From an uncultured Chloroflexia bacterium (GTDB taxonomy: Bacteria > Chloroflexota > Limnocylindria > Limnocylindrales > CSP1-4), in contig CAVSWB010000004.1 of the NCBI GenBank assembly GCA_963731635.1, positions 240,780 to 304,779 of the forward strand: a stretch of DNA of 64,000 nucleotides, given 5' to 3'. The notes beneath the pieces were generated by a model that worked only from the letters and a program-made list of their open reading frames with translations, had not been told where the DNA came from and searched no databases. A program made the position numbers and the translations under genes. Below are positions 21,193 through 47,704 of the stretch, in pieces. Positions within the stretch are counted from its first letter, which is position 1. Each line of letters opens with the position of its first letter.

Positions 21193-21199
21193 GGCGGCG

Positions 21200-21243
21200 A
21201 ATTTGGGCGCGTGGTGTTAACGCGATGTTCCGGCTGCGTGAAC
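21200..21243 (-). promoter_or_regulatory. Pho-box-like array (21216, 21227, 21238) with -10 CAAATT; leaderless start of the atypical regulator
   Basis: GTTAAC/GTTCCG/GTGAAC at an 11-bp period, 10-bp gap to CAAATT, ATG 7 nt later. Confidence 0.7.
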
Positions 21244-21251
21244 GTTGAGTG

Positions 21252-21440
21252 AAGCAGCGCGAATTACTGAGCGAGGAGCGCAGGCGACAACGAAGCGCTG
21301 GGCCGCCCGCCGAACCAGGAGCAGCGCCGCCGGCGAGCACAGAGCGAGGCGGAGCCGAGCACCGCCGCGAGCGGCCCTGGACGGCCGTGAGCGAGGAGCG
21401 CGGGCGACAACGAAGCGCTGGGCCGCCCGCGGCGCTGCTT
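21252..21440. repeat. REP/MITE-like intergenic element: 43-bp direct repeat x2 inside 9-bp terminal inverted repeats
   Basis: TGAGCGAGGAGCGC(A/G)GGCGACAACGAAGCGCTGGGCCGCCCGC at 21268 and 21388; AAGCAGCGC / GCGCTGCTT at the ends. Confidence 0.7.
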
Positions 21441-21442
21441 AC

Positions 21443-22063: not shown

Positions 22064-22192
22064 ATCTACCTCCGGCGGGTCTCTGGGACCCGGGACTCGC
22101 ATTGGACTCGGCTAGCGTAACGGTCGGCGCGCCTCGCCGCCAGCCGGTCACATCGGGCTGTCGAAGTCGCGCCGGTGTGCCATGCTCGACGT

Positions 22193-24216: not shown

Positions 24217-24326
24217 GCCCGATCTCCGACCGTCCCCCAGGAGAGGTCGGTCCGTGCCAGAGGCATTTTCGGCCGGCCGCCATGGGTGACGTTCCCAGGT
24301 CGGAAGCATACCGTCGCCGCCGAGGG

Positions 24327-24554
24327 TCAGGGATCGAGAACCGGCGACTCGACCGGTTCTTCGGGGGCGCCGAGCAGCCCGAGGATGGCCTGGTAGGAGA
24401 GAACGGTGCGGCGCGAGACGAGCGCGGCTATGCGATGTGGATCGCGGCGGATTCGCCCGGGCCGGGGGGTCGAGAGGCGAGGCCAGAGGGCCAGGCCCCG
24501 GGCGTAGTAGTCCGGACCGGACTGGATCGGAGCGGCCCGTCCGGCGTTAGTCAT
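24327..24554 (-). CDS. Small hypothetical protein (75 aa)
   Basis: GAGGT RBS; overlaps the upstream ORF stop; colinear with phoU2. Confidence 0.45.
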   Translation of the reverse strand: MTNAGRAAPIQSGPDYYARGLALWPRLSTPRPGRIRRDPHRIAALVSRRTVLSYQAILGLLGAPEEPVESPVLDP

Positions 24555-24879
24555 CGACGACCTCGAGCGGGCACCCTGCCGATGGCTCAGTCGATTCGGG
24601 AGCGAGCTCCAGCCAGCGTGCGGCGTAGGCGAGCTCGAGCACCTCTGTGGCGGAACCCGATGCGAACTCGGTCGTGGCGAGCCGGCAGAGCGATTCCCGC
24701 CGATACAATTCGAGGAGGGCGACCCGGCTTCGGATCGGTTCGAGCTGAGCCCGAACGAGGGCGACCCGTTCTGCCAGCGCTGGGGGAGCCATAGGCTCCA
24801 GTGCGACTCCGGGCATCACCGATAGGCCTCCTTGCCCGCCGGGGCGCTTCATTCGAAGCGAATCCGAGCGGCGGATCAT
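24547..24879 (-). CDS. Hypothetical protein (up to 110 aa)
   Basis: Helical-looking ORF directly downstream of a Pho-box-like promoter. Confidence 0.5.
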   Translation of the reverse strand: MIRRSDSLRMKRPGGQGGLSVMPGVALEPMAPPALAERVALVRAQLEPIRSRVALLELYRRESLCRLATTEFASGSATEVLELAYAARWLELAPESTEPSAGCPLEVVDD

Positions 24880-24883
24880 GCCC

Positions 24884-24927
24884 AGCCTGGAGCCGGCAGG
24901 TCATCGGCCGATAAACCGACCGTTAAC
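24884..24927 (-). promoter_or_regulatory. Pho-box-like array (24900, 24911, 24922) with -10 CAGGCT
   Basis: GTCATC/ATAAAC/GTTAAC at an 11-bp period, 10-bp gap to nAnnnT. Confidence 0.55.
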
Positions 24928-24955
24928 GTATGAATTTGTGCGGGCCAGAACCACG

Positions 24956-24986
24956 AAGAAGCCGCGGCTCAGGACCGCGGCTTCTT
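24956..24986 (-). terminator. Intrinsic terminator after the histone-like gene
   Basis: AAGAAGCCGCGG-7nt-CCGCGGCTTCTT perfect inverted repeat. Confidence 0.75.
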
Positions 24987-25019
24987 GTTGCGAACGGGGC
25001 CAGTCGGGGGCCCGGGCGG

Positions 25020-25736
25020 TTAGCGCTCGGGCGGCGGCGTGGTGGCCGGGTTTGAGGGGAGTGCGGGTCGCGGCCTGCCGGCCGCTCCGTTAGAGCGAGT
25101 TCGGGCGGCGCGCTTGACCGGGGCGCGTTTTGCGGCAGGGCTCGGGGCAACCGGAGCCGGAGCCGCATCGGCGTCGGGCGCTTCGTGCAGAGCGGGGACC
25201 TCGGTGGCAGCCGCCCGGGTCGCCGGCTTTGCCGCCGCCCGGGCCGGCCCTGCCGCCGCCCGGGCCGCGCGGGGTTTCGCCGCCGGCTTAATCACTGGTT
25301 TCGTGGCGGCAGCCGGTTTCGCGGCGCTCGGAGCGACGGCTTTTCGAGCAGCCGGCCTCGGAGCCGCAGCCTTCGCCACGGGCTCGGAGATCGCTGTGGA
25401 CGTGGCCGCCGCTTTCGCCGCGGGCTCCGTCTTCGGCGCGGCAGGCCGGCTCGCCGACGGCCCGGTCTCGCCGGACCTGGCGGCCTGGACGGACGCCCGG
25501 GCGGTCTCGATCTGGTCTATGGCGGCCTCGATCCGCTGACGGCGCCGGAGCGCCCGCTCCAGCTTGCGCAGGCGCTTGCGTTCGAGACGAGCCGCCTCGG
25601 CCAGCCGGCTCCTCAGCTTGCTCAATCGGCGGCGCAGAGTCTTGCGGACCGCCTTGGAAGCCTTGCCCGAGGTCGCTGCGACGGGTGCCTTTTCGCGGTC
25701 CGAGTCGCGTGAGACCTTCGTTCCCTTTTTGGCCAT
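25020..25736 (-). CDS. Highly basic Ala/Lys/Arg/Pro-rich histone H1-like protein with N-terminal coiled coil
   Basis: MAKKG start after AAGGGGG; R/K-rich helix, then AAKPA-type low-complexity repeats. Confidence 0.7.
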   Translation of the reverse strand: MAKKGTKVSRDSDREKAPVAATSGKASKAVRKTLRRRLSKLRSRLAEAARLERKRLRKLERALRRRQRIEAAIDQIETARASVQAARSGETGPSASRPAAPKTEPAAKAAATSTAISEPVAKAAAPRPAARKAVAPSAAKPAAATKPVIKPAAKPRAARAAAGPARAAAKPATRAAATEVPALHEAPDADAAPAPVAPSPAAKRAPVKRAARTRSNGAAGRPRPALPSNPATTPPPER

Positions 25737-25895
25737 TGCGGCCCCCTTTGGCTGGACGTGTTCTGGTCTGCCCAGGTCGACTTCCAGGCTTTCCGTCCGG
25801 TCGGGGAGGATAGTCCAGGCGCGTCTCGACGCACAACCGGAAACCTACCCAGTGAGACTCCGGTGCCTATGCAGCCGAATGGGTTCGCTCCGGCA

Positions 25896-26396
25896 TCAAT
25901 CCTGGGAGGCCAGCAGCTCCGGCGGAAGCAGCCATCGGAGGACGCCCGAACCGGGTTCGATCGGTCGGGTCGAATTGATCCGGATGAGAGCGCCTTTTCG
26001 CATCGGCAGGTCCGCGACTCCGACCAGGGCTGCCGCCAGCTCGCTGAAATCCGGATCGTGACCGACGAGCAGCGGCCGGCTCGGGTTTCCGAGCGAGACC
26101 AGCAGCGCCTCGAGTGCGGCGACGTCGAGGGGCTCACCCAGCGCCTCGACGACCCGGACCGGGAGCCCGAGCGGCGTTGCGGCGAGCCGGGCGGTATCCA
26201 GCGCGCGAAGCTTCGGGGACGAGGCGATCGCGTCGGGTTCGAATTCCGCCTCGGCCAGCAGCAGTCCGAGCCGCGCCGCCTGAAACCGGCCCTTCTCAGA
26301 GAGCGGGCGGAGGTCGTCCGGGCCGCCCCACTTCATCGGATCGCCGGCGTGAGCGTGGCGGAGTAAGTGGAGCTGGACCTCGTTTCGTGCGCTCAT
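25896..26396 (-). CDS. sixA: Phosphohistidine phosphatase SixA family
   Basis: LLRHAHA, RPLSEKG, SSPKLRA, LVGHDP; ATGA overlap with the CHAD gene. Confidence 0.88.
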   Translation of the reverse strand: MSARNEVQLHLLRHAHAGDPMKWGGPDDLRPLSEKGRFQAARLGLLLAEAEFEPDAIASSPKLRALDTARLAATPLGLPVRVVEALGEPLDVAALEALLVSLGNPSRPLLVGHDPDFSELAAALVGVADLPMRKGALIRINSTRPIEPGSGVLRWLLPPELLASQD

Positions 26397-28159
26397 AGCG
26401 CCGCAGTTGCCCGGCCGAGCGACCTGCGGAACGTCGCACCGGCCACCGCCCGCCAGATCGGACCGATCGTCCGCCGCCGCCTGGCGAGCTCGCGCTCGTT
26501 CACCCGCATATATGCGCCGATTGCGTCTGCCTCCGACCGCGACAACTCTCCGGCCCGAGCAACAAGGACGTCGCGAGCCAGCTTGGCAGCCACATCGGCG
26601 TCGTGGAGGCAGCCGAGGTGGTCCTGCAGGGCCACGACACGCAGGAGCAGGCGCGGCGCGTCCGGCCCCAGGGTCTCGCCGAAGAACTCCAGTCCGTAGC
26701 GCAGCCACTTCGCCGCGATGCGCAGTTCGTGGAGGGTTTGCACGTCGGCCCAGGCGAGCACCAGTTCGTAGGCCCGGACCGTTTCGTATGAACTCCAGAG
26801 CAGCGAAGGCGCGCGGTCCTTCACTCGGTTGGGGCGGGAAGGCGAAGTCGCAACGGCTGCTGAGGTCGCGCCGCCGTTGAGGAAAGCTTCCATTTCTTCG
26901 CCAAAGCCGGCATAACCGGACGAATCGAGCTCGTCGAGCAGGAGAGTCCGGGCGGCTTTTCTCTCTTTCTTCCACATCGACATGAGCGGGTCCAGGCCGG
27001 CTCGATCGCCTTCGCCCAGACCCGACCGGTACTTCTCGAGGCCGTCGATCATGACGTCGAGGTCCCGAGCGGCGCCGAGCCTGTCGGCAATTTTCTCCAG
27101 GCGCCGCCTGATCTTCCTGGTTCGACCGGCGCGGAAAGAGTCGTCGAAGACGCGCCACGCCGCTCTCATCCGACGGGTGGCCACGCGCATGTCGTGGAGC
27201 GCCTCAATATCGGAGTCGCTCCTGACCGCTTCCTCCCACTTGCGCAACCGATCGAAGTTGAAGCGCAGGATCTTGCAGGCGGCTTCGGCCATCGGGTCGT
27301 CGGCCAGGACACCCAGTGCTCGCGGTCCCCCCGGCTTCGCCGGAACGTCCGCGCCCGAGGCAGTTGCCGGCTCCGGCGGACGATCCGTCGTTGCCGCGGG
27401 CCGAACCGGCTCGGCCGGGACCGGCGCCGGAGCCGACGTCGGCACCGGCTGTGCCGCCCCTCCCTCGCCGAGCACGTCCGGCGGCGCGGATTGCCACCGG
27501 CGCCGTACGTCCGGAGGGAGCTGCTCGAGCGCGCCGCGAACCGCATTGACGGCCCGATCCAGCTTCGAGCGGGAAACGCCCCTCAATCCCTCCTCGCGGT
27601 CGAGCACGTCGGCGAGGGCTTCGAGCGGCGCCTCCGAGCCGCGCTTGAGCTCGACCTCGAGCTCCTCGAAGTGATCGATCTCGCGTTCGGCGCTCTCGAC
27701 GCTGACCTCGTCGATGCTCAGCTCGACCCTCGTGCCGTCCGACTCGAAGCGTCGCACCCGGCGCAGCTGTCGGAGCGTTAGCAGTTCGATTAGCGGCGCG
27801 TCACCGCACAGTTCCAGGATTACGGACCGGGCCTGGGATGAGGGCCACGAGGCCGGCCGCTGGGTAGGGTCGGCCGGTCCCTCCAGCTCATCGCGGCGGT
27901 GGAGGCGTCCTCCGGACGGAGCGTGCGTCTTGAGGCAGATCTGCGTGCCGTGGGAGGTGCGGCGAAGTCGCGCCGCGAATCCTGCGCGGGCCAGTGCCCA
28001 ATCGGCTGAGTCGACGTAGCGGTCTTCGAGCTGGATGGAGCTGACGCGGCCCGCCGGCCTGAACGTGCCGAGCTCCGGCGCCACGAGATAGCGGTCGGCA
28101 CTGCCTGCGCCCGCGACTTCGTATTTGAGCTCGACTTCGAGCTTGCGACCCGTTGCCAA
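26393..28159 (-). CDS. CYTH-CHAD fusion protein (YgiF-like, polyphosphate binding)
   Basis: EVELK, RLRR, ELEVELK (CYTH); LHDMRVATRRMR, RDLDV, LHELRIAAKWLRY, QDHLGCLHD (CHAD). Confidence 0.9.
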   Translation of the reverse strand: MATGRKLEVELKYEVAGAGSADRYLVAPELGTFRPAGRVSSIQLEDRYVDSADWALARAGFAARLRRTSHGTQICLKTHAPSGGRLHRRDELEGPADPTQRPASWPSSQARSVILELCGDAPLIELLTLRQLRRVRRFESDGTRVELSIDEVSVESAEREIDHFEELEVELKRGSEAPLEALADVLDREEGLRGVSRSKLDRAVNAVRGALEQLPPDVRRRWQSAPPDVLGEGGAAQPVPTSAPAPVPAEPVRPAATTDRPPEPATASGADVPAKPGGPRALGVLADDPMAEAACKILRFNFDRLRKWEEAVRSDSDIEALHDMRVATRRMRAAWRVFDDSFRAGRTRKIRRRLEKIADRLGAARDLDVMIDGLEKYRSGLGEGDRAGLDPLMSMWKKERKAARTLLLDELDSSGYAGFGEEMEAFLNGGATSAAVATSPSRPNRVKDRAPSLLWSSYETVRAYELVLAWADVQTLHELRIAAKWLRYGLEFFGETLGPDAPRLLLRVVALQDHLGCLHDADVAAKLARDVLVARAGELSRSEADAIGAYMRVNERELARRRRTIGPIWRAVAGATFRRSLGRATAAL

Positions 28160-28235
28160 TCCTCGACCCGCCTTCCATCAGTCCACGATGGCAGCTCGCG
28201 GCCCGCACTGCGGCCCGTACTGCTGCCCGGTGCCG

Positions 28236-30398
28236 TTACGCCCTTGGATCGAGCGATCCCGTACCCGCGTGAGGTCGCCGCGGCTCGACCGCCTTCACGG
28301 CCGACTCTGCGGCAACCGCCTGGAGGATTTCGAACGTGTCGAGCGTGCCCGGCATCCCGTCCAATTCCTCGGTCCGGCGATAAGCGCCGTCGGCGCACAG
28401 CTGCCAGGACCGGCGGTCGTCGGCGAGCATCACTTCGATTACCCGCTTTATCCGCTCCTGGGCCTCGAGATCCTCGACGGGCACCACTGCCTCCACCCGC
28501 CGGTCCAGGTTGCGTTCCATCAGGTCGGCCGAGCCGATGTACCACTCGGGCCGTTCATCGTTGGCGAAGTGGAACACCCTGGAGTGCTCGAGGTATTGGC
28601 CCACGATCGACCGAACGCGGATGCTTCCGCTGGTGCCTTCGAGACCCGGCCAGAGCGAGCAGATGCCGCGAATGATCAGGTCCACGCTGACGCCCGCCTC
28701 GGAGGCGTCGTAGAGCGCCGCCACGCAGGCCGGGTCCACGAGCGAGTTGAGCTTGAGGATGATCCTGGCGGGTCGGCCGGCTCGCGCGTGTTCCGTTTCG
28801 CGCCGGATCATGGCCAGGATCCAAGTGCGCAGATTCATCGGCGCCACGATCAGCCGCCGGAAGTCCCTCTGGCGCGAGAGCCCCGTCAGGACGTTGAACA
28901 GATCGCTGACGTCGGCGCCCAGCTCCGGGCGGCAGGAGAGCAGACCGAAGTCCGTGTACAGCCGCGCCGTGCCCGAGTTGTAGTTGCCCGTTCCGATGTG
29001 GACATAGCGCCGCAGACTCGAACCCTCGCGCCGGACGACGAGCGACGTCTTGGAGTGCGTCTTGAGCCCGACCAGGCCGTACACGACGTGGGCACCGGCC
29101 TGCTCGAGCTTGCGTGCCCAGACGATGTTGGCCTCTTCGTCGAAGCGCGCTTTGATCTCGACCAGGACCACAACCTGCTTGCCGCGCTCCGCCGCGGCGA
29201 TGAGATCTCGCACGATCGGGGAGTCGCCGCTGGTGCGGTAGAGGGTCATCTTGATCGAGAGGACCTCGGGATCGGCCGCAGCCTGCGCGATGAACTGCTG
29301 GGTGGAGGCGGCGAAGCTCTCGTAGGGGTGGTGCACGAGCAGGTCGCCGGCGCGGATCGCGGCGAAGATGTCCGCCGGCTCGTCCTCGTCAGGCGGCAGC
29401 AACCGTGGCGGCAGCGCAGGCGTATATGGCGGTAGCTTGAGGTCCGGCCGGTCCAGCCTGGCGATTTCCCAGAGGCTGGTGTGGTCGATCATGCTGCCGA
29501 CCTCGTAGCCGTCTTCGGGGGCCACGCCGACGCCCTTTTCGAGGACCTGGCGCATTGCGGTGGGCATCGCTTCATCGACCTCGAGCCTGACGGCTTCGCC
29601 GAATCGCCGGCGGCGCAGCTCCTCCTGGATCGCCAGCAGCAAATCGTCGGCTTCGTCCTCCTCGATCTCGAGGTCGGCGTTGCGGGTCACGCGGAAGAGG
29701 TGTGTCTCGAGGATGGTCATCCCCGAGAAGAGCAGGTCCAGGTTGGCCGCGATGACCTGCTCCAGCAGCACGAAGGTGCTCGGACCGATCGGTACGAAGC
29801 GCGGCAGGATCGGCGGTACCTTGACGCGCGCGAAACGGTCGGGGCCGCCGTCCGGGTTCTCCATCCGGATGGCGATCGAAAGACTGAGCGTGCTGATATA
29901 CGGGAACGGATGGCCGGGGTCCACCGCAAGCGGCGTCAGGACCGGATACATGTCGTTGATGAACCGCTCGCGCAGCTCTGCATGGCTCTCCGGGACGTCG
30001 GCATAGTGAACGATCGAGATCCCGGCAGCGCCCAGATCCGCGCAAACGCCGTCGAAGATGCGGCGCTGCTCGATCAGCAGCTCCCGGAACCGCTGGCGGA
30101 TGTCGGTCAGCTGCTCGGCCGCCGAACGTTCACCGGGCGAATTCGGCACCGCGCCTGCCCGGGCTTGCTCCATGAGTCCCGCGACGCGGATCTGGAAGAA
30201 CTCGTCCATGTTGCTGGCGAAGATGGCCAGGAACTTGACCCGCTCCAGGAGCGGGTTACGAGCGTCGGAGCCCTCGTACAGAACGCGATGCTGGAACTCG
30301 AGCGAGCTCAGTTCGCGGTTGATGTATGGGAAATCGGGGCCCGCCTCGAACCCGGACAGGACCGGCCTGGGGGTTTCGCTCCGATCGATAGCCGTCAC
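28236..30398 (-). CDS. ppk1: Polyphosphate kinase 1
   Basis: YINRELS, PLLERVKF, PGHPFP, HHPYESF, KARFDE, KTHSK, LEHSR, SADLMERNLDRRVE. Confidence 0.97.
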   Translation of the reverse strand: MTAIDRSETPRPVLSGFEAGPDFPYINRELSSLEFQHRVLYEGSDARNPLLERVKFLAIFASNMDEFFQIRVAGLMEQARAGAVPNSPGERSAAEQLTDIRQRFRELLIEQRRIFDGVCADLGAAGISIVHYADVPESHAELRERFINDMYPVLTPLAVDPGHPFPYISTLSLSIAIRMENPDGGPDRFARVKVPPILPRFVPIGPSTFVLLEQVIAANLDLLFSGMTILETHLFRVTRNADLEIEEDEADDLLLAIQEELRRRRFGEAVRLEVDEAMPTAMRQVLEKGVGVAPEDGYEVGSMIDHTSLWEIARLDRPDLKLPPYTPALPPRLLPPDEDEPADIFAAIRAGDLLVHHPYESFAASTQQFIAQAAADPEVLSIKMTLYRTSGDSPIVRDLIAAAERGKQVVVLVEIKARFDEEANIVWARKLEQAGAHVVYGLVGLKTHSKTSLVVRREGSSLRRYVHIGTGNYNSGTARLYTDFGLLSCRPELGADVSDLFNVLTGLSRQRDFRRLIVAPMNLRTWILAMIRRETEHARAGRPARIILKLNSLVDPACVAALYDASEAGVSVDLIIRGICSLWPGLEGTSGSIRVRSIVGQYLEHSRVFHFANDERPEWYIGSADLMERNLDRRVEAVVPVEDLEAQERIKRVIEVMLADDRRSWQLCADGAYRRTEELDGMPGTLDTFEILQAVAAESAVKAVEPRRPHAGTGSLDPRA

Positions 30399-37093: not shown

Positions 37094-37845
37094 TCCTCGA
37101 GCGGCAATCGCTGAATGAGGGCCAGGACCGGGCGGGAGGCCGGTTCGTCGGGAACGTCGGGCACGATGTGCAGTGGGATCCCGCCCGGTTGTGCGGCTAT
37201 CCAGCGCCACAGGTCGCTGCGCCGACCCGGCAGGTAGGGGCTGCGCAGGTGGCGGGCCGTCACTCCCCGCAGGCCCTGCTGGGCGACGGCGAAGTAGAGG
37301 TCCATGCCGTCGCCGACGACCCCCGGCAATACGACCAGCTCGGCGCCGGGCGTGACGATCCGGGCCAGGTGCTCCCGGCGCCGCAGCAAAGGTTGAGCTA
37401 TGACCGGCATTCCGGCGGCCCAGAGCAGGTCAAAGACCAGGAATACGGGACTAAGCCCGGGCGTATCGCGACCTGCCAGGCGCGCCGCCAGCGCCTCGGG
37501 GTTCATCCGCCCGTCTCGATCGGGCAGGACGATCTCGCCGTCCAGGATCGCGGGAAGGTCGCCGACGAGATCCGGAAGCGTTGCGGTCAGTTCGGGGAGG
37601 TAAGCGGCCATGTCGCGGCCCGTCGCGTCGAGCAGCCGGACTCGGGGCAGTTGCTCAAATCGGTCGGGCTCGATGAACGCCAGGGCCCGCTGACCGCCCC
37701 AGCTCGGCTCGAAGACGTGCTCGTCCGAATCGAACGGGGCATGGGCGGGCCGCGCCAGCATCGGCCGAAGAGATCGCGGCAGGCGCGAGACGTCGCCGCT
37801 GAGGCTCAGCGACAGCTGGTCGTCCCCGCCTTCGGGCCCGTTCAG
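37090..37845 (-). CDS. ATP-dependent DNA ligase adenylation-domain homolog lacking catalytic residues; probable CTG start overlapping the ppk2 stop
   Basis: LRPMLA, ILDGEIV, VFDLLW, SPYLPGRRS motifs of the LigD ligase domain; motif I reads EPSWGGQR. Confidence 0.75.
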   Translation of the reverse strand: MNGPEGGDDQLSLSLSGDVSRLPRSLRPMLARPAHAPFDSDEHVFEPSWGGQRALAFIEPDRFEQLPRVRLLDATGRDMAAYLPELTATLPDLVGDLPAILDGEIVLPDRDGRMNPEALAARLAGRDTPGLSPVFLVFDLLWAAGMPVIAQPLLRRREHLARIVTPGAELVVLPGVVGDGMDLYFAVAQQGLRGVTARHLRSPYLPGRRSDLWRWIAAQPGGIPLHIVPDVPDEPASRPVLALIQRLPLED

Positions 37846-38861
37846 TACTTCTCCGGCACGAACCGTTGGCTCTCGATGGGCGGTCGAACGTAGCCGTCGT
37901 CGACCTGGCGCGTCGGCAGGACGATCTGCTCGGGCGTCGTGTCGTCGTAAGGAAGCAGGCTCAGAAGGTGGCTGATGCAGTTCAGGCGGGCGCGCTCCTT
38001 GTTGTCGGCCTCAACGACCCACCAGGGCGTCTCGGGCTTGTCGGTGGCGGCGAACATGGCGTCCTTGGCCTTGGAGTACTCGACCCACTTCGAGCGCGCG
38101 GTCACGTCCATCGGCGAGATCTTCCAGCGCTTGGTGGGGTTGTTGATCCGATCCTGGAAGCGACGTTCCTGCTCGTCGTCGCTGACCGAGAACCAGTACT
38201 TGATCAGGATGATCCCCGAGCGCAGCAGCATCCTCTCGAATTCGGGCGCGGTCTCGAGATACTCGCGGTATTCCTCGTCGCTGCAGAAGCCCATGACGTG
38301 TTCGACGCCGGCCCGGTTGTACCAGCTGCGATCGAACAGGACCCACTCGCCGGCCGCGGGAAGCTGGGCCACGTAGCGCTGGAAATACCACTGCGTCTTC
38401 TCGCGGTCCGTGGGTATGCCCAAAGCGCAGATGCGGCAGACGCGCGGGTTGAGCGTCTCGGTGATGCGCTTGATAACTCCGCCCTTGCCGGCCGCGTCGC
38501 GGCCCTCGAACAGGCATACGACCTTGAGGCCGCGGGCCTTGATCCACTCCTGAAGTTTGACCAGCTCGACCTGGAGCCGTGCCAGCTCGGCAGCGTAGAC
38601 CTTTGGGTCGAGGTTCTTGCGCGCTTTCTGCTCGAGGTCGCCGCTCGACGCATCGAAACGATCGGTCTTCGAAATGTGCTTGCCTTCGCGCTTCGCGGCC
38701 TTCGAGCGTGCGATCTTCTTCTGCCGCCGGATCGACTCGGCGGCTACGGCCCTTGCGGCCGCGTTCTCGGCTTCGGGCTCCGGCGGCGAGTCGATGGCGG
38801 CCTTCGCGGCCCTGGCATCCAGCTTCCGTGCGCTCGTCCGGTTGTCGTGGTCTTTCGGCAA
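37842..38861 (-). CDS. ppk2: Polyphosphate kinase 2 (class I-like)
   Basis: FEGRDAAGKGG, QWYFQRY, FDRSWYNRAGVE, WKISPMD; TTG start after AAGGAGG. Confidence 0.95.
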   Translation of the reverse strand: MPKDHDNRTSARKLDARAAKAAIDSPPEPEAENAAARAVAAESIRRQKKIARSKAAKREGKHISKTDRFDASSGDLEQKARKNLDPKVYAAELARLQVELVKLQEWIKARGLKVVCLFEGRDAAGKGGVIKRITETLNPRVCRICALGIPTDREKTQWYFQRYVAQLPAAGEWVLFDRSWYNRAGVEHVMGFCSDEEYREYLETAPEFERMLLRSGIILIKYWFSVSDDEQERRFQDRINNPTKRWKISPMDVTARSKWVEYSKAKDAMFAATDKPETPWWVVEADNKERARLNCISHLLSLLPYDDTTPEQIVLPTRQVDDGYVRPPIESQRFVPEKY

Positions 38862-38989
38862 GGTCGACCTCCTTGTGCTCAAAGTAGGCCATGTTCGGGC
38901 AGGCCACAAGGGCCCACACGAGCCACGGTCCCACGCGCGACGCGGCGGGCCGGTACCATGCTCGCCAGGAGCGAAAGCGGAGGAGATCG

Positions 38990-40405
38990 ATGCAGCTCTG
39001 GGGCGGTCAATTCAGCGGGACCACGGACGAGCGAGTGGCCGATTTCACGAGGTCGGTCGAACTCGATCGCGCCCTGGCGCTTGACGATATCGCGGGTTCG
39101 ATCGCCCATGTGCACGGCCTGGGTCGGGCCGGCCTGCTCGCCGATGAGGAAGTGGCGGCCCTCGTCGCGGGTCTCGACGCCCTCAGGGCCGAGGTCGTGA
39201 CCGGCGCCATCCGCTGGGATCCGGCGCTCGAAGACGTCCACATGAACCTGGAGTCGGCGCTGCAGGCCCGAATCGGGCCGCTCGCGGGGCGCCTCCACAC
39301 CGGCCGTTCGCGCAACGACCAGGTCGCCACAGATCTGCGGTTATGGCTGCGGCGCACGATCGACGAGCTGGACGCAGCTGTCCTGGAGATGGAACGGGCG
39401 CTGGTCCGGCTGGCCGACCGCGACGGGGAAGCGATCCTGCCGGGCACGACCCACATCCAGCCGGCGCAACCGGTGCTGCTTGCCCACCACCTGCTGGCCT
39501 ACGTCGAGATGCTCGAACGCGATCGAGGCCGCCTGGCGGACTGCCGGCGGCGGGCGAACGTCAGCCCGCTGGGCGCGGGGGCCCTGGCCGGAGCCGGTTA
39601 CCCGCTCGACCGTGAGGCGACCGCGGTCGAGCTCGGCTTCGACGGCGTCACCGCCAACTCGCTCGATGCCGTCAGCGACCGCGACTTCGTGGCCGAAGCC
39701 CTGTCCGCATTCGCCCTGTGCATGGTCCATCTCAGCCGGCTGGCCGAGGAGATTACCTGGTGGTCGAACCCGCGCTTCGGCTTCGTCCGCGCCGCCGACG
39801 CATTCTCGACCGGTTCCTCGATGATGCCGAACAAGAAGAACCCGGATCCCGCCGAGCTGGTGCGCGGCCGCGCGGCTCGGGTCATCGGTTCGCTGACCGG
39901 CTTCCTGGCGCTGATGAAGGGCCTGCCGCTGGCCTACCAGCGCGACCTCCAGGAGGACAAGCCGCCGCTCTTCGAGGCTGCCGCCACGCTCGAGGCATCG
40001 CTCGGCGTGATGGCGGGCATGGTGGCGACGCTGAGCGTCGATCGTGCCCGGATGCTGGCCGCGGCCAGCGAGGGTTACATAACCGCCACGGCCGTGGCCG
40101 ACGCGCTCGTCCGCCGGGGAGTGGCGTTCCGCGCCGCTCACCACATCGTCGGCGCGCTGGTCGCGGCGGCGGAGCGCGGCGGGGTCGGGCTGGACGTCGT
40201 CGACGACGCCGCGATATCCACCGCTCTGGCCGAATCCGAGGACGATGTCGCGCGTCGGCTGGGCGAAGATGCCTCGATCGGCGGCGAGCTGCGGGCCGCC
40301 GCGGCCCTGGACGGCGCACTGGCCAGCTGCGATGTGATCGGCGGGACGGCGCCACGCCGCGTCGCGGCGGCGCTCGCGGCAGCAAAGGCGCGCCTGGGAC
40401 TCTGA
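38990..40405 (+). CDS. argH: Argininosuccinate lyase
   Basis: LWGGQF, EDVH, HTGRSRNDQ, TGSSMMPNKKNPD, DLQEDK. Confidence 0.96.
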   Translation: MQLWGGQFSGTTDERVADFTRSVELDRALALDDIAGSIAHVHGLGRAGLLADEEVAALVAGLDALRAEVVTGAIRWDPALEDVHMNLESALQARIGPLAGRLHTGRSRNDQVATDLRLWLRRTIDELDAAVLEMERALVRLADRDGEAILPGTTHIQPAQPVLLAHHLLAYVEMLERDRGRLADCRRRANVSPLGAGALAGAGYPLDREATAVELGFDGVTANSLDAVSDRDFVAEALSAFALCMVHLSRLAEEITWWSNPRFGFVRAADAFSTGSSMMPNKKNPDPAELVRGRAARVIGSLTGFLALMKGLPLAYQRDLQEDKPPLFEAAATLEASLGVMAGMVATLSVDRARMLAAASEGYITATAVADALVRRGVAFRAAHHIVGALVAAAERGGVGLDVVDDAAISTALAESEDDVARRLGEDASIGGELRAAAALDGALASCDVIGGTAPRRVAAALAAAKARLGL

Positions 40406-40514
40406 GCCGCGAGGCCGTGCCCGGGCGAATGGCGCACGCGGAGGCCCGCGGGGCCTTGCTCCGAGCGAGTGGCGCGCGATGCATGAAGCCGCCTCCGCGC
40501 CCACTTTCTGAACC

Positions 40515-40591
40515 GCAACCAGCCCGGAACCAGAGCGCGACCCGAGGTCCACCCCGTCGCTACTGAACACCGCCTCACGCAACCCTACGCT
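40515..40591 (+). promoter_or_regulatory. amtB1 promoter: five 11-bp-periodic boxes plus -10 TACGCT
   Basis: GCAACC 40515, GGAACC 40526, GCGACC 40537, TCCACC 40548, GCTACT 40559; TACGCT 40586. Confidence 0.78.
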
Positions 40592-40652
40592 TTCGCGAGC
40601 CGGCGGAGAGCTTTCCGTTCGGTTGCGGCAATGGGACGAAGGAGAAACGCGC

Positions 40653-41876
40653 GTGATCAACTCCGGCGATACCGCCTGGGTACTTACCTCGACGGCGCTC
40701 GTCATGTTGATGACGCCCGGTCTGGCCCTCTTCTACGGCGGCCTCGTACGCCGCAAGAACGTGCTCAGCACGATCATGCACAGCGTCTTCATCCTGGCGC
40801 TCGTGAGCGTCACGTGGGTCCTGTTCGGGTTCACCCTGGCCTTCGGCAAGGACGTCAACGGCTGGGGGATCATCGGCGGAATCGATTACATCGGTCTGCA
40901 CGGCGTGGGCAAGGAGCCTTTGACCCAGTACGCACCGACGATCCCCGGGTCGGCCTTCATGGCCTTCCAGATGATGTTCGCCGTCATCACTCCGGCCCTG
41001 ATCACCGGTGCTTTCGCCGAACGCAAGCGCTTCAAGGCCTTCGTCCTGTTCTCGCTCCTGTGGACGCTGGTCGTCTACTCGCCGATCGCCCATTGGGTCT
41101 GGGGCGATGGCGGCTGGCTGCGCAATCTCGGCGTGCTGGACTTCGCGGGCGGCACGGTCGTCCACATCAGCTCCGGCGTTGCGGCGCTGGTCGCCGCCCT
41201 CGTCCTCGGCCCGCGTGTCAAGCGGGAGTCGGAGCGCTTCGAGCCGCACGACGTCCGACTGACCGTGATCGGAGCGGCGCTGTTGTGGTTTGGCTGGTTC
41301 GGCTTCAACGGCGGATCCGCTCTGGCGGCCAACGGCACGGCCGCGAACGCGTTCGTGGTCACGAACACGGCGGCGGGCATGGCGGCGCTGACCTGGGTCA
41401 CCGTCTCGTGGCTGCACAAGGGCACTCCCAGCGTGACCGGAGCCGTGGCGGGCGGTGTGGCCGGGCTGGTGGCCATCACGCCGGCCTCGGGTTTCGTGGA
41501 CGCCAGCTCGGCCATCATCATCGGCCTTGCCGCCGGCATCACCTGTTACGCCGCCATCCTCCTGCGTGAGCGGCTCAAGGTCGACGACGCGCTCGACGTC
41601 TGGGCCGTCCACGGCGTGGGCGGGACTCTCGGCGCGATCCTGACCGGCGTCTTTGCGGTGGCTGCCGTCGGTGGCGCATCGGGCCTCGTCGACGGCAATG
41701 CCGGCCAGGTCGGCAAGCAGCTGGTCGCGGTGGCGGCGACCTGGATCTACAGCGGTATCGCCACCTTTGCGATTCTCAAGATCGTCGACTTCTTCGTCGG
41801 GCTCCGAGTGGAGGAGGCCGAAGAAGAGGCGGGCCTGGACTCCTCCCAGCACGGCGAGGTTGCATGGCAGAGCTAG
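40653..41876 (+). CDS. amtB: Ammonium transporter (copy 1)
   Basis: GDTAW, TPGLALFYGG, FQMMFA, DFAGGTVVH, WFGWFGFNGGS, DDALDV, HGVGG, GLD..QHGE. Confidence 0.97.
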   Translation: MINSGDTAWVLTSTALVMLMTPGLALFYGGLVRRKNVLSTIMHSVFILALVSVTWVLFGFTLAFGKDVNGWGIIGGIDYIGLHGVGKEPLTQYAPTIPGSAFMAFQMMFAVITPALITGAFAERKRFKAFVLFSLLWTLVVYSPIAHWVWGDGGWLRNLGVLDFAGGTVVHISSGVAALVAALVLGPRVKRESERFEPHDVRLTVIGAALLWFGWFGFNGGSALAANGTAANAFVVTNTAAGMAALTWVTVSWLHKGTPSVTGAVAGGVAGLVAITPASGFVDASSAIIIGLAAGITCYAAILLRERLKVDDALDVWAVHGVGGTLGAILTGVFAVAAVGGASGLVDGNAGQVGKQLVAVAATWIYSGIATFAILKIVDFFVGLRVEEAEEEAGLDSSQHGEVAWQS

Positions 41877-41979
41877 GAGCTTCTCCGGCCGCCTGACGAG
41901 ACTCCGGCCCCCGGATCGCCCAACCGCCGGATTCCGAAACGGTTCGCCCGAACCGGTCGCTGAGACGTGTCCCCCAACG

Positions 41980-42056
41980 GCAACCGCCGCGCCACCAGAG
42001 CGCTACCCGAGGGTTACTCGGCCGCTACTGAAACGCGCTTCCGGCCTCCCTACGCT
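41980..42056 (+). promoter_or_regulatory. amtB2 promoter: five 11-bp-periodic boxes plus -10 TACGCT
   Basis: GCAACC 41980, GCCACC 41991, GCTACC 42002, GTTACT 42013, GCTACT 42024; TACGCT 42051. Confidence 0.8.
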
Positions 42057-42117
42057 TCCCAGGCCGAAACCTTTGCCTGCGTTTCGTTGCGAGTGGGGAA
42101 CCTGAGGAGTCTCGATT

Positions 42118-43338
<1,221 letters not shown>

Positions 43339-43399
43339 CGCAACCTCGGTTGCATTCGGCGAGCGGGCCGGGGATCGAAACAGGCGTTCGTACCGAACG

Positions 43400-43476
43400 G
43401 CAACCCCCGCGCCACCCCGGCGCTACCGACCGGCCACCGCCGCGCTACTGATATCGGCCGGCTCCCTCAATAGACT
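43400..43476 (+). promoter_or_regulatory. Third copy of the amt-type promoter, upstream of a microprotein ORF
   Basis: GCAACC 43400, GCCACC 43411, GCTACC 43422, GCCACC 43433, GCTACT 43444; TAGACT 43471. Confidence 0.78.
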
Positions 43477-43526
43477 TCAGGTCAGTGAAGGGACGGGGTC
43501 CCTGGTTCAGCCGAAGGAGCCGAGAC

Positions 43527-43610
43527 GTGATCGCAGCCGCTTTCATCAGCTTCGCAATCCTGGTCGTGGCCTGGTTCGTGGCCCCGTCTCGCGCCCACGA
43601 GGCCGAATAA
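43527..43610 (+). CDS. 27-aa single-TM microprotein MIAAAFISFAILVVAWFVAPSRAHEAE (not in the ORF track)
   Basis: AAGGAG RBS at 43514-43519, GTG start, TAA stop, its own conserved promoter, hydrophobic helix. Confidence 0.7.
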   Translation: MIAAAFISFAILVVAWFVAPSRAHEAE

Positions 43611-43727
43611 CCTCAAACGCTCCAAGCGCGGTCGTCCGGATCGCGCCGCTCAGTTCGAACACCGACCCGCGCACCTTTCGGCAGGCAGCGCGGGTTCGTT
43701 GTTTCTCGGCCTGGGCCTCGCCGTGGC

Positions 43728-44441
43728 CTAACCCGCGTCGCCCAGCCGGTAGCCCACGCCGCGCACCGAGGCCGGCACCGGAGCACCCGATTCCTCGAGC
43801 TTCGTTCGCAGGCGAGCCAGGTGTGGCTTGAGCCATTGCGGGTCCGGGTTCGGCTCGCCCGGCCAGCCGGCCGAGAGCAGGCTGCTGTGCGAGACCACGT
43901 GACCTCCCGCCGCGACCAGTGAGGCCAGCAGGCTGTATTCGGTGCGGGTCAGGACGAGCTCGTTGCCCGAGACCGCGGCGGTGTGGCGGCCGCGGTCGAG
44001 GACGATCGGTCCCCAGCGCAACTCGCCGACGCCACGCGGCTCGGCCTCGTTGCCGCGGCGGCGCATGACCGCGCGTATCCGCGCCAGCAGCTCTTGCTTG
44101 CCGAACGGCTTCACCACGTAGTCGTCCGCGCCGGTGTCGAGCGCCTCCACCTTGGCCCGCTCGTCGGCCTCGCCGGTCAGGACGATAATCGGCGTCTGGG
44201 ACATGCGGCGGATGGCCCGGCACACTTCCACGCCGTCCAGGCCCGGCATCGCCAGGTCGAGCAGCACCAGGTCCGGACGCTCCTCGGAGAATCGCCGCAG
44301 GGCCGTGTTGCCGTCGTACGCGGTCACGACACGGTGGCCTGCGCGACCGACGAGGGCCGAGACGGCTCCGACCATCGCGGGCTCGTCGTCCACGACGAGG
44401 ATGAGCAGGCCGGTATCTCCTGCGGAATCCATCTGGCTCAA
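43728..44441 (-). CDS. OmpR-family response regulator (KdpE-like)
   Basis: ILVVDDE, LVLLDLAMP, GADDYVVKPF, wHTH LTRTEY...VRGVGY. Confidence 0.92.
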   Translation of the reverse strand: MSQMDSAGDTGLLILVVDDEPAMVGAVSALVGRAGHRVVTAYDGNTALRRFSEERPDLVLLDLAMPGLDGVEVCRAIRRMSQTPIIVLTGEADERAKVEALDTGADDYVVKPFGKQELLARIRAVMRRRGNEAEPRGVGELRWGPIVLDRGRHTAAVSGNELVLTRTEYSLLASLVAAGGHVVSHSSLLSAGWPGEPNPDPQWLKPHLARLRTKLEESGAPVPASVRGVGYRLGDAG

Positions 44442-44469
44442 CTCGCCTCCTGTGGTCCAAGCCGGCGGC

Positions 44470-45864
44470 TCAGGCCCCGTCCTCCGACATCACCCCGGCC
44501 TCGGGAGCATTATCGCCGTCTGAAGTTTGGCGCATCTGGGGCACGGCCACCATGAACCGGCTGCCACCGTATCCGTTGGACTCCAACCAGACTCGCCCGC
44601 CCATGGCGGTCATGAGCTGGCGGGCCGCATACAGGCCGATCCCGGAGCCGCGGGGCCGGTTGGCCGTCCGGACATAGGCCTCGAAGACGGAAGCCCACTC
44701 CGGCTCCGGAATTCCGGAGCCGTCGTCGGTGACGTAGACCTGGACCTCGCCGTCGGCCGCCCAGGCTCCGATGCTCACCGCTCCGCCCTCCGGCGAATAC
44801 TTCACTTCGTTCTCGAGGAGATGTTCGAGAACCTGCCGGAAACGACCCTCGTCTCCGAGGCCGATCAGCGGCGCTTCGGTTCCGGAGCGTCGCAGGGGAT
44901 GGCTGCGCAGCAGCGGGATCATCTCGTCGACCGTGTCATTGATGGCGCGGGCGAGATCGAAGGGATCGCGCGACAGGCCCGCGGCCAGGCCTTCGCCCCG
45001 CACGGAGGCCAGGATCGAGTCGACGAGCCGGTCCAGCCGCGTGACCTGGGCTATCGCCTGGTCGCGCCAGTCGGCCACGACCGCCGGCTTGGGGAGAGGG
45101 CCCGCCGCCCTGGTCTTGCGGTTGTCGCTGGCGGCCCTGGCCGCGTCTACGGCCGCATCCGCGAGCAGATCGAGATAGGCCCGGACGATTGCGAGTGGCG
45201 TCCGCAGCTCATGGGTCACGACGGCAAGAAGCTCCGCGCGGGCGCCGTCCAGTGCGGTGAGGGTTTCGAGCTGCGCTTCGGCCTCCGCCTGTAACCGGCC
45301 CTTCTCGACGATGCCGCCGAGGAGCGCACTGATCGTGACCAGGAACTCGACTTCTTCGGGCGAGAACGTCCGGGCCTCGATCGTCTGGACGTTCAGAACG
45401 CCGATGATCAGATCGTTCCACGGCAGCGGAACCGAGAGCATCGAGGTGAACTGCGACTGGTCGAAGCCGGGCACCCACTTGAAGCGGGGGTCGACCCGCA
45501 CGTCCGGCGACGCCACCGGGAGACCGATCTCGGCGGCGCGACCGGTCAGGCCCTCGCCGAGAGCCATCGTTACGCGTCCGATCTGGTCGCGGTCGAGGCC
45601 GTTGGTCGCCACCAGCCGCAGCCGGGCCTCGTCACGCTCTCTGAGATACAAGGAGCAGACTTCCACGTCGAGGGCGCTGGTTGTGCGGTCCACGATGGTC
45701 CGCATCAGCTCATCCCAGTCGCGTGCCGTGGTCAGCAGCTTCGCGAACTCATGCAGGACGGACAGCTCGCGCAGCTTGCGCTCGGCGTCGACACGGCGCG
45801 GCCGCGCCGAAACGGCACCCGGCGTCGTCGGGCCTGGGGGGGCGTTCCGGTGCGGGGCGGTCAA
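44470..45864 (-). CDS. Cytoplasmic GAF-domain sensor histidine kinase
   Basis: GAF (VCSLYL...LVATNGL...GEGLTG...SMLSVPL...GVLNVQ), THELRTPL, DDGSGI, GSGIGL; no TM segment. Confidence 0.9.
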   Translation of the reverse strand: MTAPHRNAPPGPTTPGAVSARPRRVDAERKLRELSVLHEFAKLLTTARDWDELMRTIVDRTTSALDVEVCSLYLRERDEARLRLVATNGLDRDQIGRVTMALGEGLTGRAAEIGLPVASPDVRVDPRFKWVPGFDQSQFTSMLSVPLPWNDLIIGVLNVQTIEARTFSPEEVEFLVTISALLGGIVEKGRLQAEAEAQLETLTALDGARAELLAVVTHELRTPLAIVRAYLDLLADAAVDAARAASDNRKTRAAGPLPKPAVVADWRDQAIAQVTRLDRLVDSILASVRGEGLAAGLSRDPFDLARAINDTVDEMIPLLRSHPLRRSGTEAPLIGLGDEGRFRQVLEHLLENEVKYSPEGGAVSIGAWAADGEVQVYVTDDGSGIPEPEWASVFEAYVRTANRPRGSGIGLYAARQLMTAMGGRVWLESNGYGGSRFMVAVPQMRQTSDGDNAPEAGVMSEDGA

Positions 45865-45877
45865 GTGGTCGCTCGCT

Positions 45878-47164
45878 CTACTTCACGGCGCTGCCGGGCG
45901 CGTCGTAGACCTTCGTCGGCAGATCCTCGAGGAGCGGGTCCGTCCACGTCCAGGCCGCACCGTGGTGCCGCCCCACGGCGCCGTGGCGGGCCGCCTCGGT
46001 TCGGAGCGGCAGCCCGAAGATCTCGATGAACCCGACCGCGCTGGCGTGGTCGAAGGTATCGTCGGCTTCGTACGTGGCCAGCCCCTTGTCGTAGAGCGAT
46101 AGCGGGCTGCGCCGGCCAACCACAACGGCGTTGCCGTGGTCGAGTCGGACCCGGACGTCGCCGCTCACCACTCGCTGGCTGCTGGCGGCGTAGCCGCGAA
46201 GGTCGCGGTGCAGGGCGCTGAACCACAGACCGTCATAGGTGAGCTGGGCCAGCTCGTCGGCGACGACCCGATTGAACCGCAGAGTGTCCTTGGAGAGCGT
46301 CAGGCCCTCGAGCGCACGGTGGGCGCGGTGGATCACGACGGCCGCCGGCGCTTCGTAGATCTCGCGGCTCTTGATCCCGACCAGGCGGTCCTCGACGTGG
46401 TCGACGCGGCCGATGCCGTGCGCCGCCGCGAGGTCGTGCAGCCGCTCAACGAGCGTGACAGCCTCCAGGCGCTCACCATCGAGCGACACCGGGACACCGC
46501 CCTCGAAGCCGATCACGATCTCGACGGCCGCCGGGGCCTTGTCGGGATCGACGGTCCATTTGTAGACATCTTCGCGCGGCGCGGCCCACGGATCTTCGAG
46601 GATGCCCGCTTCGATGGAGCGGCCCCAGAGGTTCACGTCGGTCGAGTAGATCGATTCCTTGGTGATCGTGATCTCGATGTTGCGGGCCTTCGCGTATTCG
46701 ATCTCCTGCTCGCGCGACAGCCCCATGCCGACGCGCATCGGGGCGATGACGGCCAGAGATGGATCGAGGGCGTGAGTCGCGACGTCGAACCGCACCTGGT
46801 CGTTGCCCTTGCCGGTGCAGCCGTGGGCGACCGCGTCGGCGCCTTCCTTGTGCGCAACCTCGACGAGCAGCTGGGCGATGAGAGGGCGCGCCATCGCCGT
46901 CGCCAGCGGGTAGACGCCCTGGTAGAGCGCACCGGCCTGGACATGGGGCCAGCAGAAGTCGCGCACGAAGCGATCCCGGCCGTCGACGACGTAGGCTCGC
47001 GCCGCACCCGCGCTGATCGCTCGACGATCCACGTCTTCCTTGAGCACGCCGCCGCCGAGATCGACCGTCAAAGTCACGACCTCGACGTCGTACTGCTCGC
47101 GCAGCCAGGCCACTGCCACCGACGTGTCGAGCCCACCGGAGTAGGCGAGGACCACCTTCTTCAT
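45878..47164 (-). CDS. argG: Argininosuccinate synthase
   Basis: VVLAYSGGLDTS, HGCTGKGNDQVRF, NLWGRSIE, GIKSREIYE. Confidence 0.97.
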   Translation of the reverse strand: MKKVVLAYSGGLDTSVAVAWLREQYDVEVVTLTVDLGGGVLKEDVDRRAISAGAARAYVVDGRDRFVRDFCWPHVQAGALYQGVYPLATAMARPLIAQLLVEVAHKEGADAVAHGCTGKGNDQVRFDVATHALDPSLAVIAPMRVGMGLSREQEIEYAKARNIEITITKESIYSTDVNLWGRSIEAGILEDPWAAPREDVYKWTVDPDKAPAAVEIVIGFEGGVPVSLDGERLEAVTLVERLHDLAAAHGIGRVDHVEDRLVGIKSREIYEAPAAVVIHRAHRALEGLTLSKDTLRFNRVVADELAQLTYDGLWFSALHRDLRGYAASSQRVVSGDVRVRLDHGNAVVVGRRSPLSLYDKGLATYEADDTFDHASAVGFIEIFGLPLRTEAARHGAVGRHHGAAWTWTDPLLEDLPTKVYDAPGSAVK

Positions 47165-47704
47165 CTGGGAGCCTCCGAATGCGCGAATGATCGGCCGGTC
47201 GGCAAGCCTGTCGGACCGGCCGGCTGGTATGACTGGAAGCGGACGAGCCACCGTTCGAGGGCGGCTTCGCTTTCGAAAAGTACGAGCAGCGTGTTGTCGC
47301 CGGCCAGCGTGCCGATCTGTTCGGTGAGGCTCGACTGGTCGATGGCCTGGGCGATCGCTCCCGCCGAACCCGGCGTGGCGAGGAGAACGATGCTGAGCCC
47401 GCTGCGGCCGAACCTGCACCGGGATGTCCTCGAGCAGCCGGGCCAGCCTGGCGTCGTAGGCGTCACCCGTGGCGGCGCTCTCGGGCGTGGCGTAGACGTG
47501 GCGGTCGCCGCGCGGTGCTTTCACAAGCCCGAGCTCGGCGGCGTCGCGGCTGACGGTCGCCTGAGTCACCTCGAAGCCTCGCTCACGGAGCAGCTCGACG
47601 AGCTCCTCCTGGCTGCCCACCGGCAGCAGCGAGATCAGCTCGAGCAGCGTCCTCTGGCGGCGTTGCTTGGAGCTCGGGAGATTGCCGTTGACGGCCATGG
47701 TCAT
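47161..47704 (-). CDS. argR: Arginine repressor, frameshift about 47415
   Basis: SQEELV..L, VTQATVSRD, LGLVK; C-terminal TPGSA, GTLAGDNT in a second frame. Confidence 0.9.

Follow-up and report, generated by a model that had tools for sequence, protein, structure and literature searches.

A soluble histidine kinase with a PtsP-type GAF domain beside ammonium transporter genes, a candidate nitrogen sensor in Limnocylindria

Here, we describe a soluble sensor histidine kinase of 464 amino acids whose sensor module is, by sequence comparison, a true homologue of the GAF domain of PtsP (EI-Ntr), the closest characterised family in the same comparisons. The kinase is encoded in a 64,000-nucleotide stretch (hereafter the window) of contig CAVSWB010000004.1, positions 240,780 to 304,779, in assembly GCA_963731635.1 of an uncultured Chloroflexota bacterium of the class Limnocylindria. 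Its gene stands at the end of an arg operon and beside two genes for ammonium transporters (amt), as had been observed in an earlier, purely sequence-based annotation of the window (the original prediction) and as Pfam assignments of the neighbours and their order bear out. We consider it likely that the kinase and its adjoining response regulator control nitrogen assimilation genes. That the ligand of the GAF domain is glutamine and/or 2-oxoglutarate is a tentative proposal drawn by analogy with PtsP, to which we give slightly less than an even chance, while we are evenly divided over the combined reading, namely a cytoplasmic nitrogen-status two-component system with a PtsP-type GAF as its sensor module. 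Overall, the observation behind the original prediction is confirmed and its interpretation partly supported.

The likeness to PtsP had initially been judged by eye from a series of segments (EVCSLYL, LVATNGL, VTMALGEGLTG, DVRVDPRFKWVP, FTSMLSVPL, IGVLNVQ and FSPEEVEFLVTIS), all of which are present in the translation, and it is borne out by profile, structure and tree comparisons. When the GAF domain alone was compared with NCBIfam, PtsP (PRK11061) scored 99.1 bits (E 2e-28, profile positions 4-162), followed by NifA (41.8 bits, E 6e-11) and NorR (15.8 bits), with no other family at E 0.01 or better; the full kinase matched the PtsP model NF008283 at positions 4-167 only, its 97 bits falling well short of the 583 required. 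With E. coli PtsP, BLASTP returned 32% identity over 160 gap-free residues (E 2e-24), and an hhalign comparison of eight kinase GAFs with five PtsP GAFs reached a probability of 99.9% (E 9e-33, 156 columns). The best GAF in a search of the entire PDB was 3e0y, an unnamed conserved domain (E 7e-23), ahead of the PtsP GAFs 3trc (E 1e-18) and 3ci6 (E 5e-18); next came the cGMP phosphodiesterase (PDE) 5w10 at E 7e-8 and, after it, DevS at 2e-4. A cyclic-nucleotide-binding GAF of the PDE/CyaB type was considered and rejected on similarity: the best PDE GAF in this search reached 36 bits and the DevS haem GAFs 25, compared with 69-71 for PtsP (69-85 when 3e0y is included). Besides, a tblastn search of 72,556 plasmid records with the GAF matched 33 of them, ten with an annotated feature under the match, and eight of these ten are ptsP or phosphoenolpyruvate (PEP)-utilising genes, the other two encoding further GAF proteins.

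In a maximum-likelihood tree of 71 GAF domains, whose rows were chosen from the best hits and so do not sample the family neutrally, all 37 GAFs from Limnocylindria fall into a single group (support 96/90). This group is nested in a clade (95/99) of 48 rows, which otherwise comprises six PtsP-type GAFs, two actinobacterial ones and those of P0155, P0178 and P0265, and which leaves out multi-GAF repeats, second GAFs and the three other GAFs of the window's own genome. The domain thus clusters with the PtsP GAFs in phylogeny as well as by profile, NifA having been compared by its NCBIfam score only. Sixteen positions show little or no variation in either the kinase family or PtsP (V69, S71, Y73, L84, A86, T87, G89, G103, G105, G108, P146, G155, V156, V159, R165 and L175), among them those of the VCSxY, ATxG and GxGxxG motifs. 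PtsP is not the nearest relative, however: GAFs from GAF-GAF kinases and GAF-PucR proteins are 44-48% identical to that of the window, with the first GAF of P0178 (a GAF-GAF-PucR protein) at 48% and the first GAF of P0155 (a GAF-GAF kinase) at 45%, compared with 29-32% for PtsP. Within its own genome the domain is unique, the next best GAF being 27% identical, and Enzyme I of this genome is a plain 610-aa protein without a GAF. An exhaustive search found 9,460 representatives that match the GAF at E 1e-10 or better; since scores are summed over 6-14 domains in giant multi-GAF proteins, these ranked first, making the search a poor guide to the nearest single domains, and 20 of the 150 matches listed were scanned with Pfam.

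The remainder of the protein has the make-up of a cytoplasmic kinase. Pfam assigns GAF/GAF_2 (E 6e-16), HisKA (E 3e-10) and HATPase_c (E 4e-21), with a conserved GAF region that is wider than the Pfam domain (about residues 26-200), and no transmembrane helix is predicted, the Kyte-Doolittle mean over stretches of 19 residues peaking at 1.28, in agreement with the earlier description of a GAF joined to HisKA/HATPase without a membrane segment. The kinase core looks active, because H218 and the N, G1, F and G2 box residues (N352, D380/G382/G384, F394 and G406/G408/G410) are invariant in 26 aligned family members; HK853-type entries match it in the PDB at E 4e-24, and the H-box histidine, the four boxes and the adjoining response regulator gene are those of a HisKA-class kinase. 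An insert of roughly 25 residues, rich in alanine, arginine and proline, separates the two HisKA helices (residues about 238-262; 45090-45170, minus strand). Its columns vary across the family, it faces a 16-residue gap on the HK853 side of the alignment, and HK853-type kinases lack it. Among the best 120 of 4,067 matches (8,000 candidates scored), the orthologues are 76-93% identical and all are metagenome kinases; the few with a name belong to Candidatus Limnocylindrales, and one JGI record was automatically named 'PtsP'. As to the regulator, its receiver retains the acidic pocket, the aspartate in an LLDLAMPG stretch and the conserved T and K. Its best NCBIfam match is MtrA (188 bits, under the cut-off of 300), and Pfam GlnR_1st scores 18.2 bits, under a cut-off of 27.

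Of 61 sampled Limnocylindria genomes, 40 have a kinase match with an E-value of 1e-40 or lower, distributed over families f1 (16/17), f2 (1/3), f3 (18/19), f4 (3/20) and f5 (1/1). The 20 best kinase loci were fetched and compared with the proteins of the window plus GltB and GlnA. The regulator follows the kinase in 17 of them, and argG precedes it in 12, directly in ten and with one gene between in two. The fetched flanks include amt in eight loci and gltB in nine, either or both in 13; loci with neither are L037, L039, L043-L045, L049 and L054, and L049 meets a contig end. Three genomes carry two copies of the kinase, one linked to argG without a regulator and the other with the regulator. 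Families f3 and f5 have a variant with a second GAF added, in which the kinase part is 31-34% identical and the first GAF 52-62%; at seven loci picked from 19 genomes, this variant is accompanied by the regulator in all seven, by amt within about 7 kb in five and by arg genes in none. Taken together, amt and/or gltB lie near the kinase-regulator pair in 18 of 27 loci from four families, and arg genes in none of the two-GAF loci, so that nitrogen assimilation is the stable partner across the class, with arg linkage confined to f1 and f4. In one genus (L046 5085-7958, G041) the pair is immediately preceded by a PEP carboxylase gene and followed by gltB and amt, which links that locus to the anaplerotic supply of 2-oxoglutarate.

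Similar neighbourhoods recur beyond the class. A GAF match at E 1e-25 or better was obtained in 30 of 151 sampled Chloroflexota genomes, and at three of the six best-scoring loci outside Limnocylindria the relative adjoins nitrogen genes (glnA-amt-PII, glnA, or amt). Two of these relatives are GAF-GGDEF_2-PucR-HTH regulators with GAFs 41-43% identical to that of the window, one beside glnA with amt and then PII (L084 6087-11845, G113) and one beside glnA (L086 4770-8254, G087), and they may be a one-component counterpart of the kinase system. The remaining four are a GAF-HisKA kinase that lies two genes from amt and three GAF-PucR regulators that adjoin amino-acid permeases, with kynureninase as a further neighbour in two cases. 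A related 'GAF domain protein' is encoded on a Paenarthrobacter plasmid, between a glutamine-synthetase-like gene and an alanine dehydrogenase gene.

PII proteins are considered to integrate nitrogen and carbon status almost universally, and direct reading of glutamine and 2-oxoglutarate has, to our knowledge, been reported for just one further type of domain, the PtsP-type GAF. The genome of the window, in which glutamine synthetase was found, has no match to PII (PF00543) or GlnD (PF08335). Across the 61 class genomes (55 of high quality), PII gave a single borderline match of 25.4 bits, compared with matches in 13 of 14 control genomes, and GlnD gave none. For Sigma54_activat there were only weak AAA+ matches of at most 33 bits, an uninformative search as this family matches all 14 control genomes. 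The original prediction held that direct metabolite sensing would bypass GlnD/PII. A circuit independent of both does fit these data; it would, however, replace rather than bypass them, because neither is found in this genome and the class genomes searched gave only 1/61 for PII and 0/61 for GlnD. PII absence is widespread in the phylum and not special to Limnocylindria, since PII was found in only 50 of the 151 Chloroflexota genomes (45 of the 132 of high quality). A literature search on how PII is distributed in Chloroflexi yielded only a PII-independent response in Pelagibacter.

A possible link between the regulator and the transporter genes is provided by three repeat arrays of 58 nt, each made up of five GCnACC-type direct repeats exactly 11 bp apart, the last being CTACTGA. 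A -10-like hexamer follows 19 nt after the array (TACGCT at amt1 and amt2, TAGACT at the third site). Such an arrangement, with direct repeats at intervals of one helical turn extending to the -35 region, is typical of the sites bound by OmpR/PhoB-family activators. With a position weight matrix (PWM) built from nine copies, the three of the window and six from three same-genus genomes, a scan of the whole 3.25-Mb genome returned just these three sites (67.9, 56.2 and 53.1), the next best scoring 16.0. The amt2 array is kept in L035, L036 and L038, and copies outside the training set score 42.7-58 in all five other genomes of the genus. Downstream of the third array lies an open reading frame (ORF) for 27 amino acids, which has the same start context in six of six genus genomes and persists where no amt is adjacent (L037, L039). 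It has no Pfam match, is probably co-regulated with amt and may encode a membrane peptide. A riboswitch in its leader was considered and dropped, given a weak hairpin, one compensatory pair among eight and no Rfam match; over 40300-43800 as a whole, which includes this leader, Rfam found no known RNA.

From these elements a mechanism can be proposed. The GAF would bind a metabolite that reports nitrogen status inside the cell (glutamine and/or 2-oxoglutarate being the likeliest, as in PtsP), and its ligand state would set the balance between kinase and phosphatase activity; on the PtsP analogy, low glutamine together with high 2-oxoglutarate would promote autophosphorylation at H218. Once phosphorylated, the regulator would attach to the five 11-bp-spaced repeats, which extend to the -35 region, and activate amt1, amt2 and the small membrane-peptide gene, or an amt-gltB operon in other genera, and the system would take the place of the PII/GlnD/NtrBC circuit in this lineage. 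More speculatively, if the kinase gene is transcribed together with the arg operon under ArgR, sensor levels may also depend on how much arginine is available. A still broader generalisation strikes us as possible but rather doubtful, namely that the PtsP-type GAF is a portable glutamine/2-oxoglutarate sensor wired to transcription in PII-less Chloroflexota (through a kinase in Limnocylindria and PucR elsewhere), giving a circuit without PII, GlnD or NtrBC whose regulon here would be the two amt genes and a 27-aa peptide that perhaps acts on the transporters in GlnK's place.

The PtsP analogy has some published footing. According to excerpts of a 2026 review, glutamine inhibits and 2-oxoglutarate stimulates PtsP autophosphorylation, and ligand binding needs the GAF (PMC13104625). 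Caulobacter EI-Ntr is inhibited by glutamine, an effect that the GAF change L83Q abolishes (PMC4848567, in extract), and the NifA GAF is described, again in an extract, as binding 2-oxoglutarate (PMC12998190). A preprint on P. aeruginosa PtsP holds deletion data only.

Several observations weigh against the nitrogen-status reading or restrict its reach. The PtsP GAFs are only distantly identical to that of the kinase (the 29-32% given above), and the closer relatives are uncharacterised for ligand. W50, D51, E52, N88, D121, D135 and N158 are invariant in the kinases and differ in PtsP, from which we gather that ligand specificity may differ as well; in the excerpts of PtsP literature examined, no residue-level glutamine/2-oxoglutarate site of the GAF was found beyond Caulobacter L83Q. 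The tree, being sampled from best hits, leaves out NifA and 3e0y-type sequences, and one member of the clade, on a Mycobacterium plasmid, is a GAF kinase among Calvin-cycle genes. Regarding the distribution, 17 of 20 f4 genomes lack a close homologue and also PII, and the kinase system is for this reason not the universal substitute for PII. In the phylum at large, PII is missing from 101 of 151 genomes and close GAF relatives occur in only 30, of which 14 also have a PII match. As for the arrays, we infer from proximity alone that the neighbouring regulator binds them. In 15 loci from other genera, nothing exceeded a PWM score of 12 and the sequence ahead of amt carries different repeats; visual inspection picked out three similar copies in front of amt in a single further genus and at no other locus, and the genome-wide scan found no array at glnA or the arg operon. 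Finally, the source assembly (3.25 Mb in four contigs, the window being on contig 4) is rated 68.8% complete and contains frameshifts.

The best of the alternatives, which we nonetheless regard as unlikely, retains a two-component system for nitrogen or amino acids and has the GAF sense another metabolite, such as arginine, N-acetylglutamate, ornithine, citrulline, argininosuccinate, glutamate or another amino acid. It draws on the position of the kinase gene after argG in 12 of 20 loci (with a gap of 13 nt here), on the argG-linked copies without an adjacent regulator in three genomes, on the amino-acid permeases or kynureninase beside GAF-PucR relatives at three of six loci, and on the kinase-invariant positions unlike PtsP. 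Yet the operon already encodes ArgR, the arg linkage is missing from all seven two-GAF loci while that to amt/gltB is class-wide, the repeat arrays sit at amt and at none of the arg genes, and the closest characterised GAFs sense glutamine/2-oxoglutarate.

Distinctly less probable is a GAF without any small-molecule ligand, acting as a dimerisation or transmission module in a kinase that answers to a partner protein (such as Amt, glutamine synthetase or glutamate synthase). For many GAF domains no ligand has been described, core structural motifs common to the whole clade are among the most strongly conserved parts here, and NtrB with PII is a general precedent for control of a nitrogen kinase by a partner; against this, the GAF is better conserved than the kinase core in the two-GAF variant (52-62% versus 31-40%), and the same GAF type occurs on three unrelated outputs (Enzyme I, kinase and PucR), as would be expected of a self-contained sensor. 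Least probable of all is a generic GAF kinase for a non-nitrogen signal (cyclic nucleotide, redox, haem/NO) in a coincidental neighbourhood, since, common as GAF-HisKA kinases are (witness the 9,460 representatives) and despite the clade member among Calvin-cycle genes, cyclic-nucleotide and DevS haem GAFs score 36 and 25 bits against 69-71 for PtsP, and the amt/gltB linkage of 18 of 27 loci over four families is seen again for related GAFs in other classes.

The features that underlie the nitrogen-status reading, together with their neighbours, are collected in Table 1.

Table 1. Position, strand and basis of assignment of the kinase, its domains and the surrounding features, in window coordinates.
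Feature	Position	Strand	Basis
Soluble sensor histidine kinase (GAF, HisKA, HATPase_c), 464 aa	44470..45864	-	Pfam
PtsP-type GAF domain, residues 47-186	45307..45726	-	Pfam, NCBIfam, PDB, hhalign, tree
HisKA (DHp) domain, phospho-acceptor H218, residues 208-291	44992..45243	-	Pfam
HATPase_c catalytic domain, residues 337-443	44536..44856	-	Pfam E 3.6e-21
OmpR/PhoB-family response regulator (receiver + winged helix)	43728..44441	-	Pfam Response_reg E 3e-32, Trans_reg_C E 6e-14
argG (argininosuccinate synthase), last biosynthetic gene of argC-J-B-R-G operon	45878..47164	-	Pfam
argR, split across two reading frames in assembly	47161..47700	-	Pfam Arg_repressor
argH (argininosuccinate lyase), upstream of amt1	38891..40405	+	Pfam Lyase_1, ASL_C2
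amt1, ammonium transporter	40623..41876	+	Pfam Ammonium_transp E 6e-130
amt2, ammonium transporter	42118..43338	+	Pfam Ammonium_transp E 2e-131
Repeat array upstream of amt1	40514..40571	+	PWM score 56.2
Repeat array upstream of amt2	41979..42036	+	PWM score 67.9
Third repeat array, upstream of small ORF	43399..43456	+	PWM score 53.1
Conserved 27-aa hydrophobic small ORF with strong ribosome-binding site	43527..43610	+	Kept in genus

The kinase gene starts 13 nt after the end of argG, on the same strand as argC, argJ, argB, argR and argG, and the regulator gene follows 28 nt further downstream; argH, amt1 and amt2 are on the plus strand and converge on the regulator gene. A simple promoter/terminator scan of 40300-46000 called nothing. 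A G+C-rich hairpin with a broken T-run occupies 43664-43705, in the gap that separates the small ORF from the regulator gene's 3' end; it is kept in the genus, was not called by that scan and is probably a two-way terminator. In argR, the part for the DNA-binding domain shares its reading frame with the argG ORF, that for the C-terminal domain lies in a different one, and the break falls near 47440-47470; the gene is unbroken in three same-genus genomes. An assembly indel is as likely an origin of this split as a real pseudogene, because the four-contig assembly is incomplete and gltB is fragmented, too. Elsewhere in the window, a set of phosphate genes (20389-30398) encodes an OmpR-type regulator, a PhoU-like DUF47 protein, a HisKA kinase, PhoU, a CYTH-CHAD protein and polyphosphate kinase 1, and polyphosphate kinase 2 is encoded further on (37842-38909).

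GAF-HisKA kinases are found very widely, and sensing by the PtsP GAF is already known. What is new is a PtsP-type GAF fused to a kinase, or to PucR in relatives, and tied to amt, gltB and glnA in PII-less lineages; full-text literature searches, whose coverage excludes most subscription journals, returned no paper on such a GAF kinase or GAF-PucR nitrogen regulator. Limnocylindria are abundant in soil and freshwater and keep Amt, glutamine synthetase and glutamate synthase without detected PII/GlnD in the genomes searched, and a kinase beside amt/gltB is a concrete, testable candidate for nitrogen sensing without PII. The candidate parts are few, comprising a single kinase with its GAF of about 175 aa, a single regulator and three arrays at promoters. 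If the nitrogen-status reading is true, the PtsP GAF would prove to be a sensor module that can be reused, one not confined to the proteobacterial nitrogen phosphotransferase system (PTS-Ntr).

Set beside known systems, the kinase-regulator pair shares features with several of them. The N-terminal GAF of NifA, the second-best characterised family (the 42 bits reported above), is likewise a carbon/nitrogen-status sensor, yet it is far more distant than that of PtsP and is fused to a sigma-54 AAA+ activator. NtrB-NtrC similarly combines a soluble kinase with a response regulator, one that, as would be the case here, switches on ammonium uptake and assimilation under nitrogen limitation. NtrB, however, has a PAS domain in place of a GAF and senses via PII, and NtrC belongs to the sigma-54 activators, unlike the OmpR-type regulator of the present pair. 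GlnR of Actinomycetota is an OmpR-family regulator acting on amt and other nitrogen-assimilation promoters through direct repeats spaced by about 11 bp, like those of the arrays described here. Unlike GlnR, which is an orphan without a cognate kinase, the regulator here has a canonical receiver, an adjacent kinase and a GlnR_1st score below the cut-off. The nearest GAFs (40-48% identity) are those of the GAF-GGDEF_2-PucR-HTH regulators and GAF-GAF kinases of Chloroflexota and Actinomycetota, several of which are encoded beside glnA, amt, PII or glutamine-synthetase-like genes, although these proteins are either one-component DNA-binding regulators or kinases with a second GAF. As regards PtsP itself, the output differs: ATP-using HisKA/HATPase domains and an OmpR-type regulator here, a PEP-dependent Enzyme I that feeds NPr and EIIA-Ntr there, and Pfam detects none of the PEP-utiliser domains (PEP-utilisers_N, mobile, C) in the kinase. 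On the input side, the two share an N-terminal GAF of the same clade, alignable without gaps over about 160 residues and with the VCSxY, ATxG and GxGxxG motifs in common, and in both a cytoplasmic GAF is placed directly on an autophosphorylating enzyme that starts a phosphorelay.

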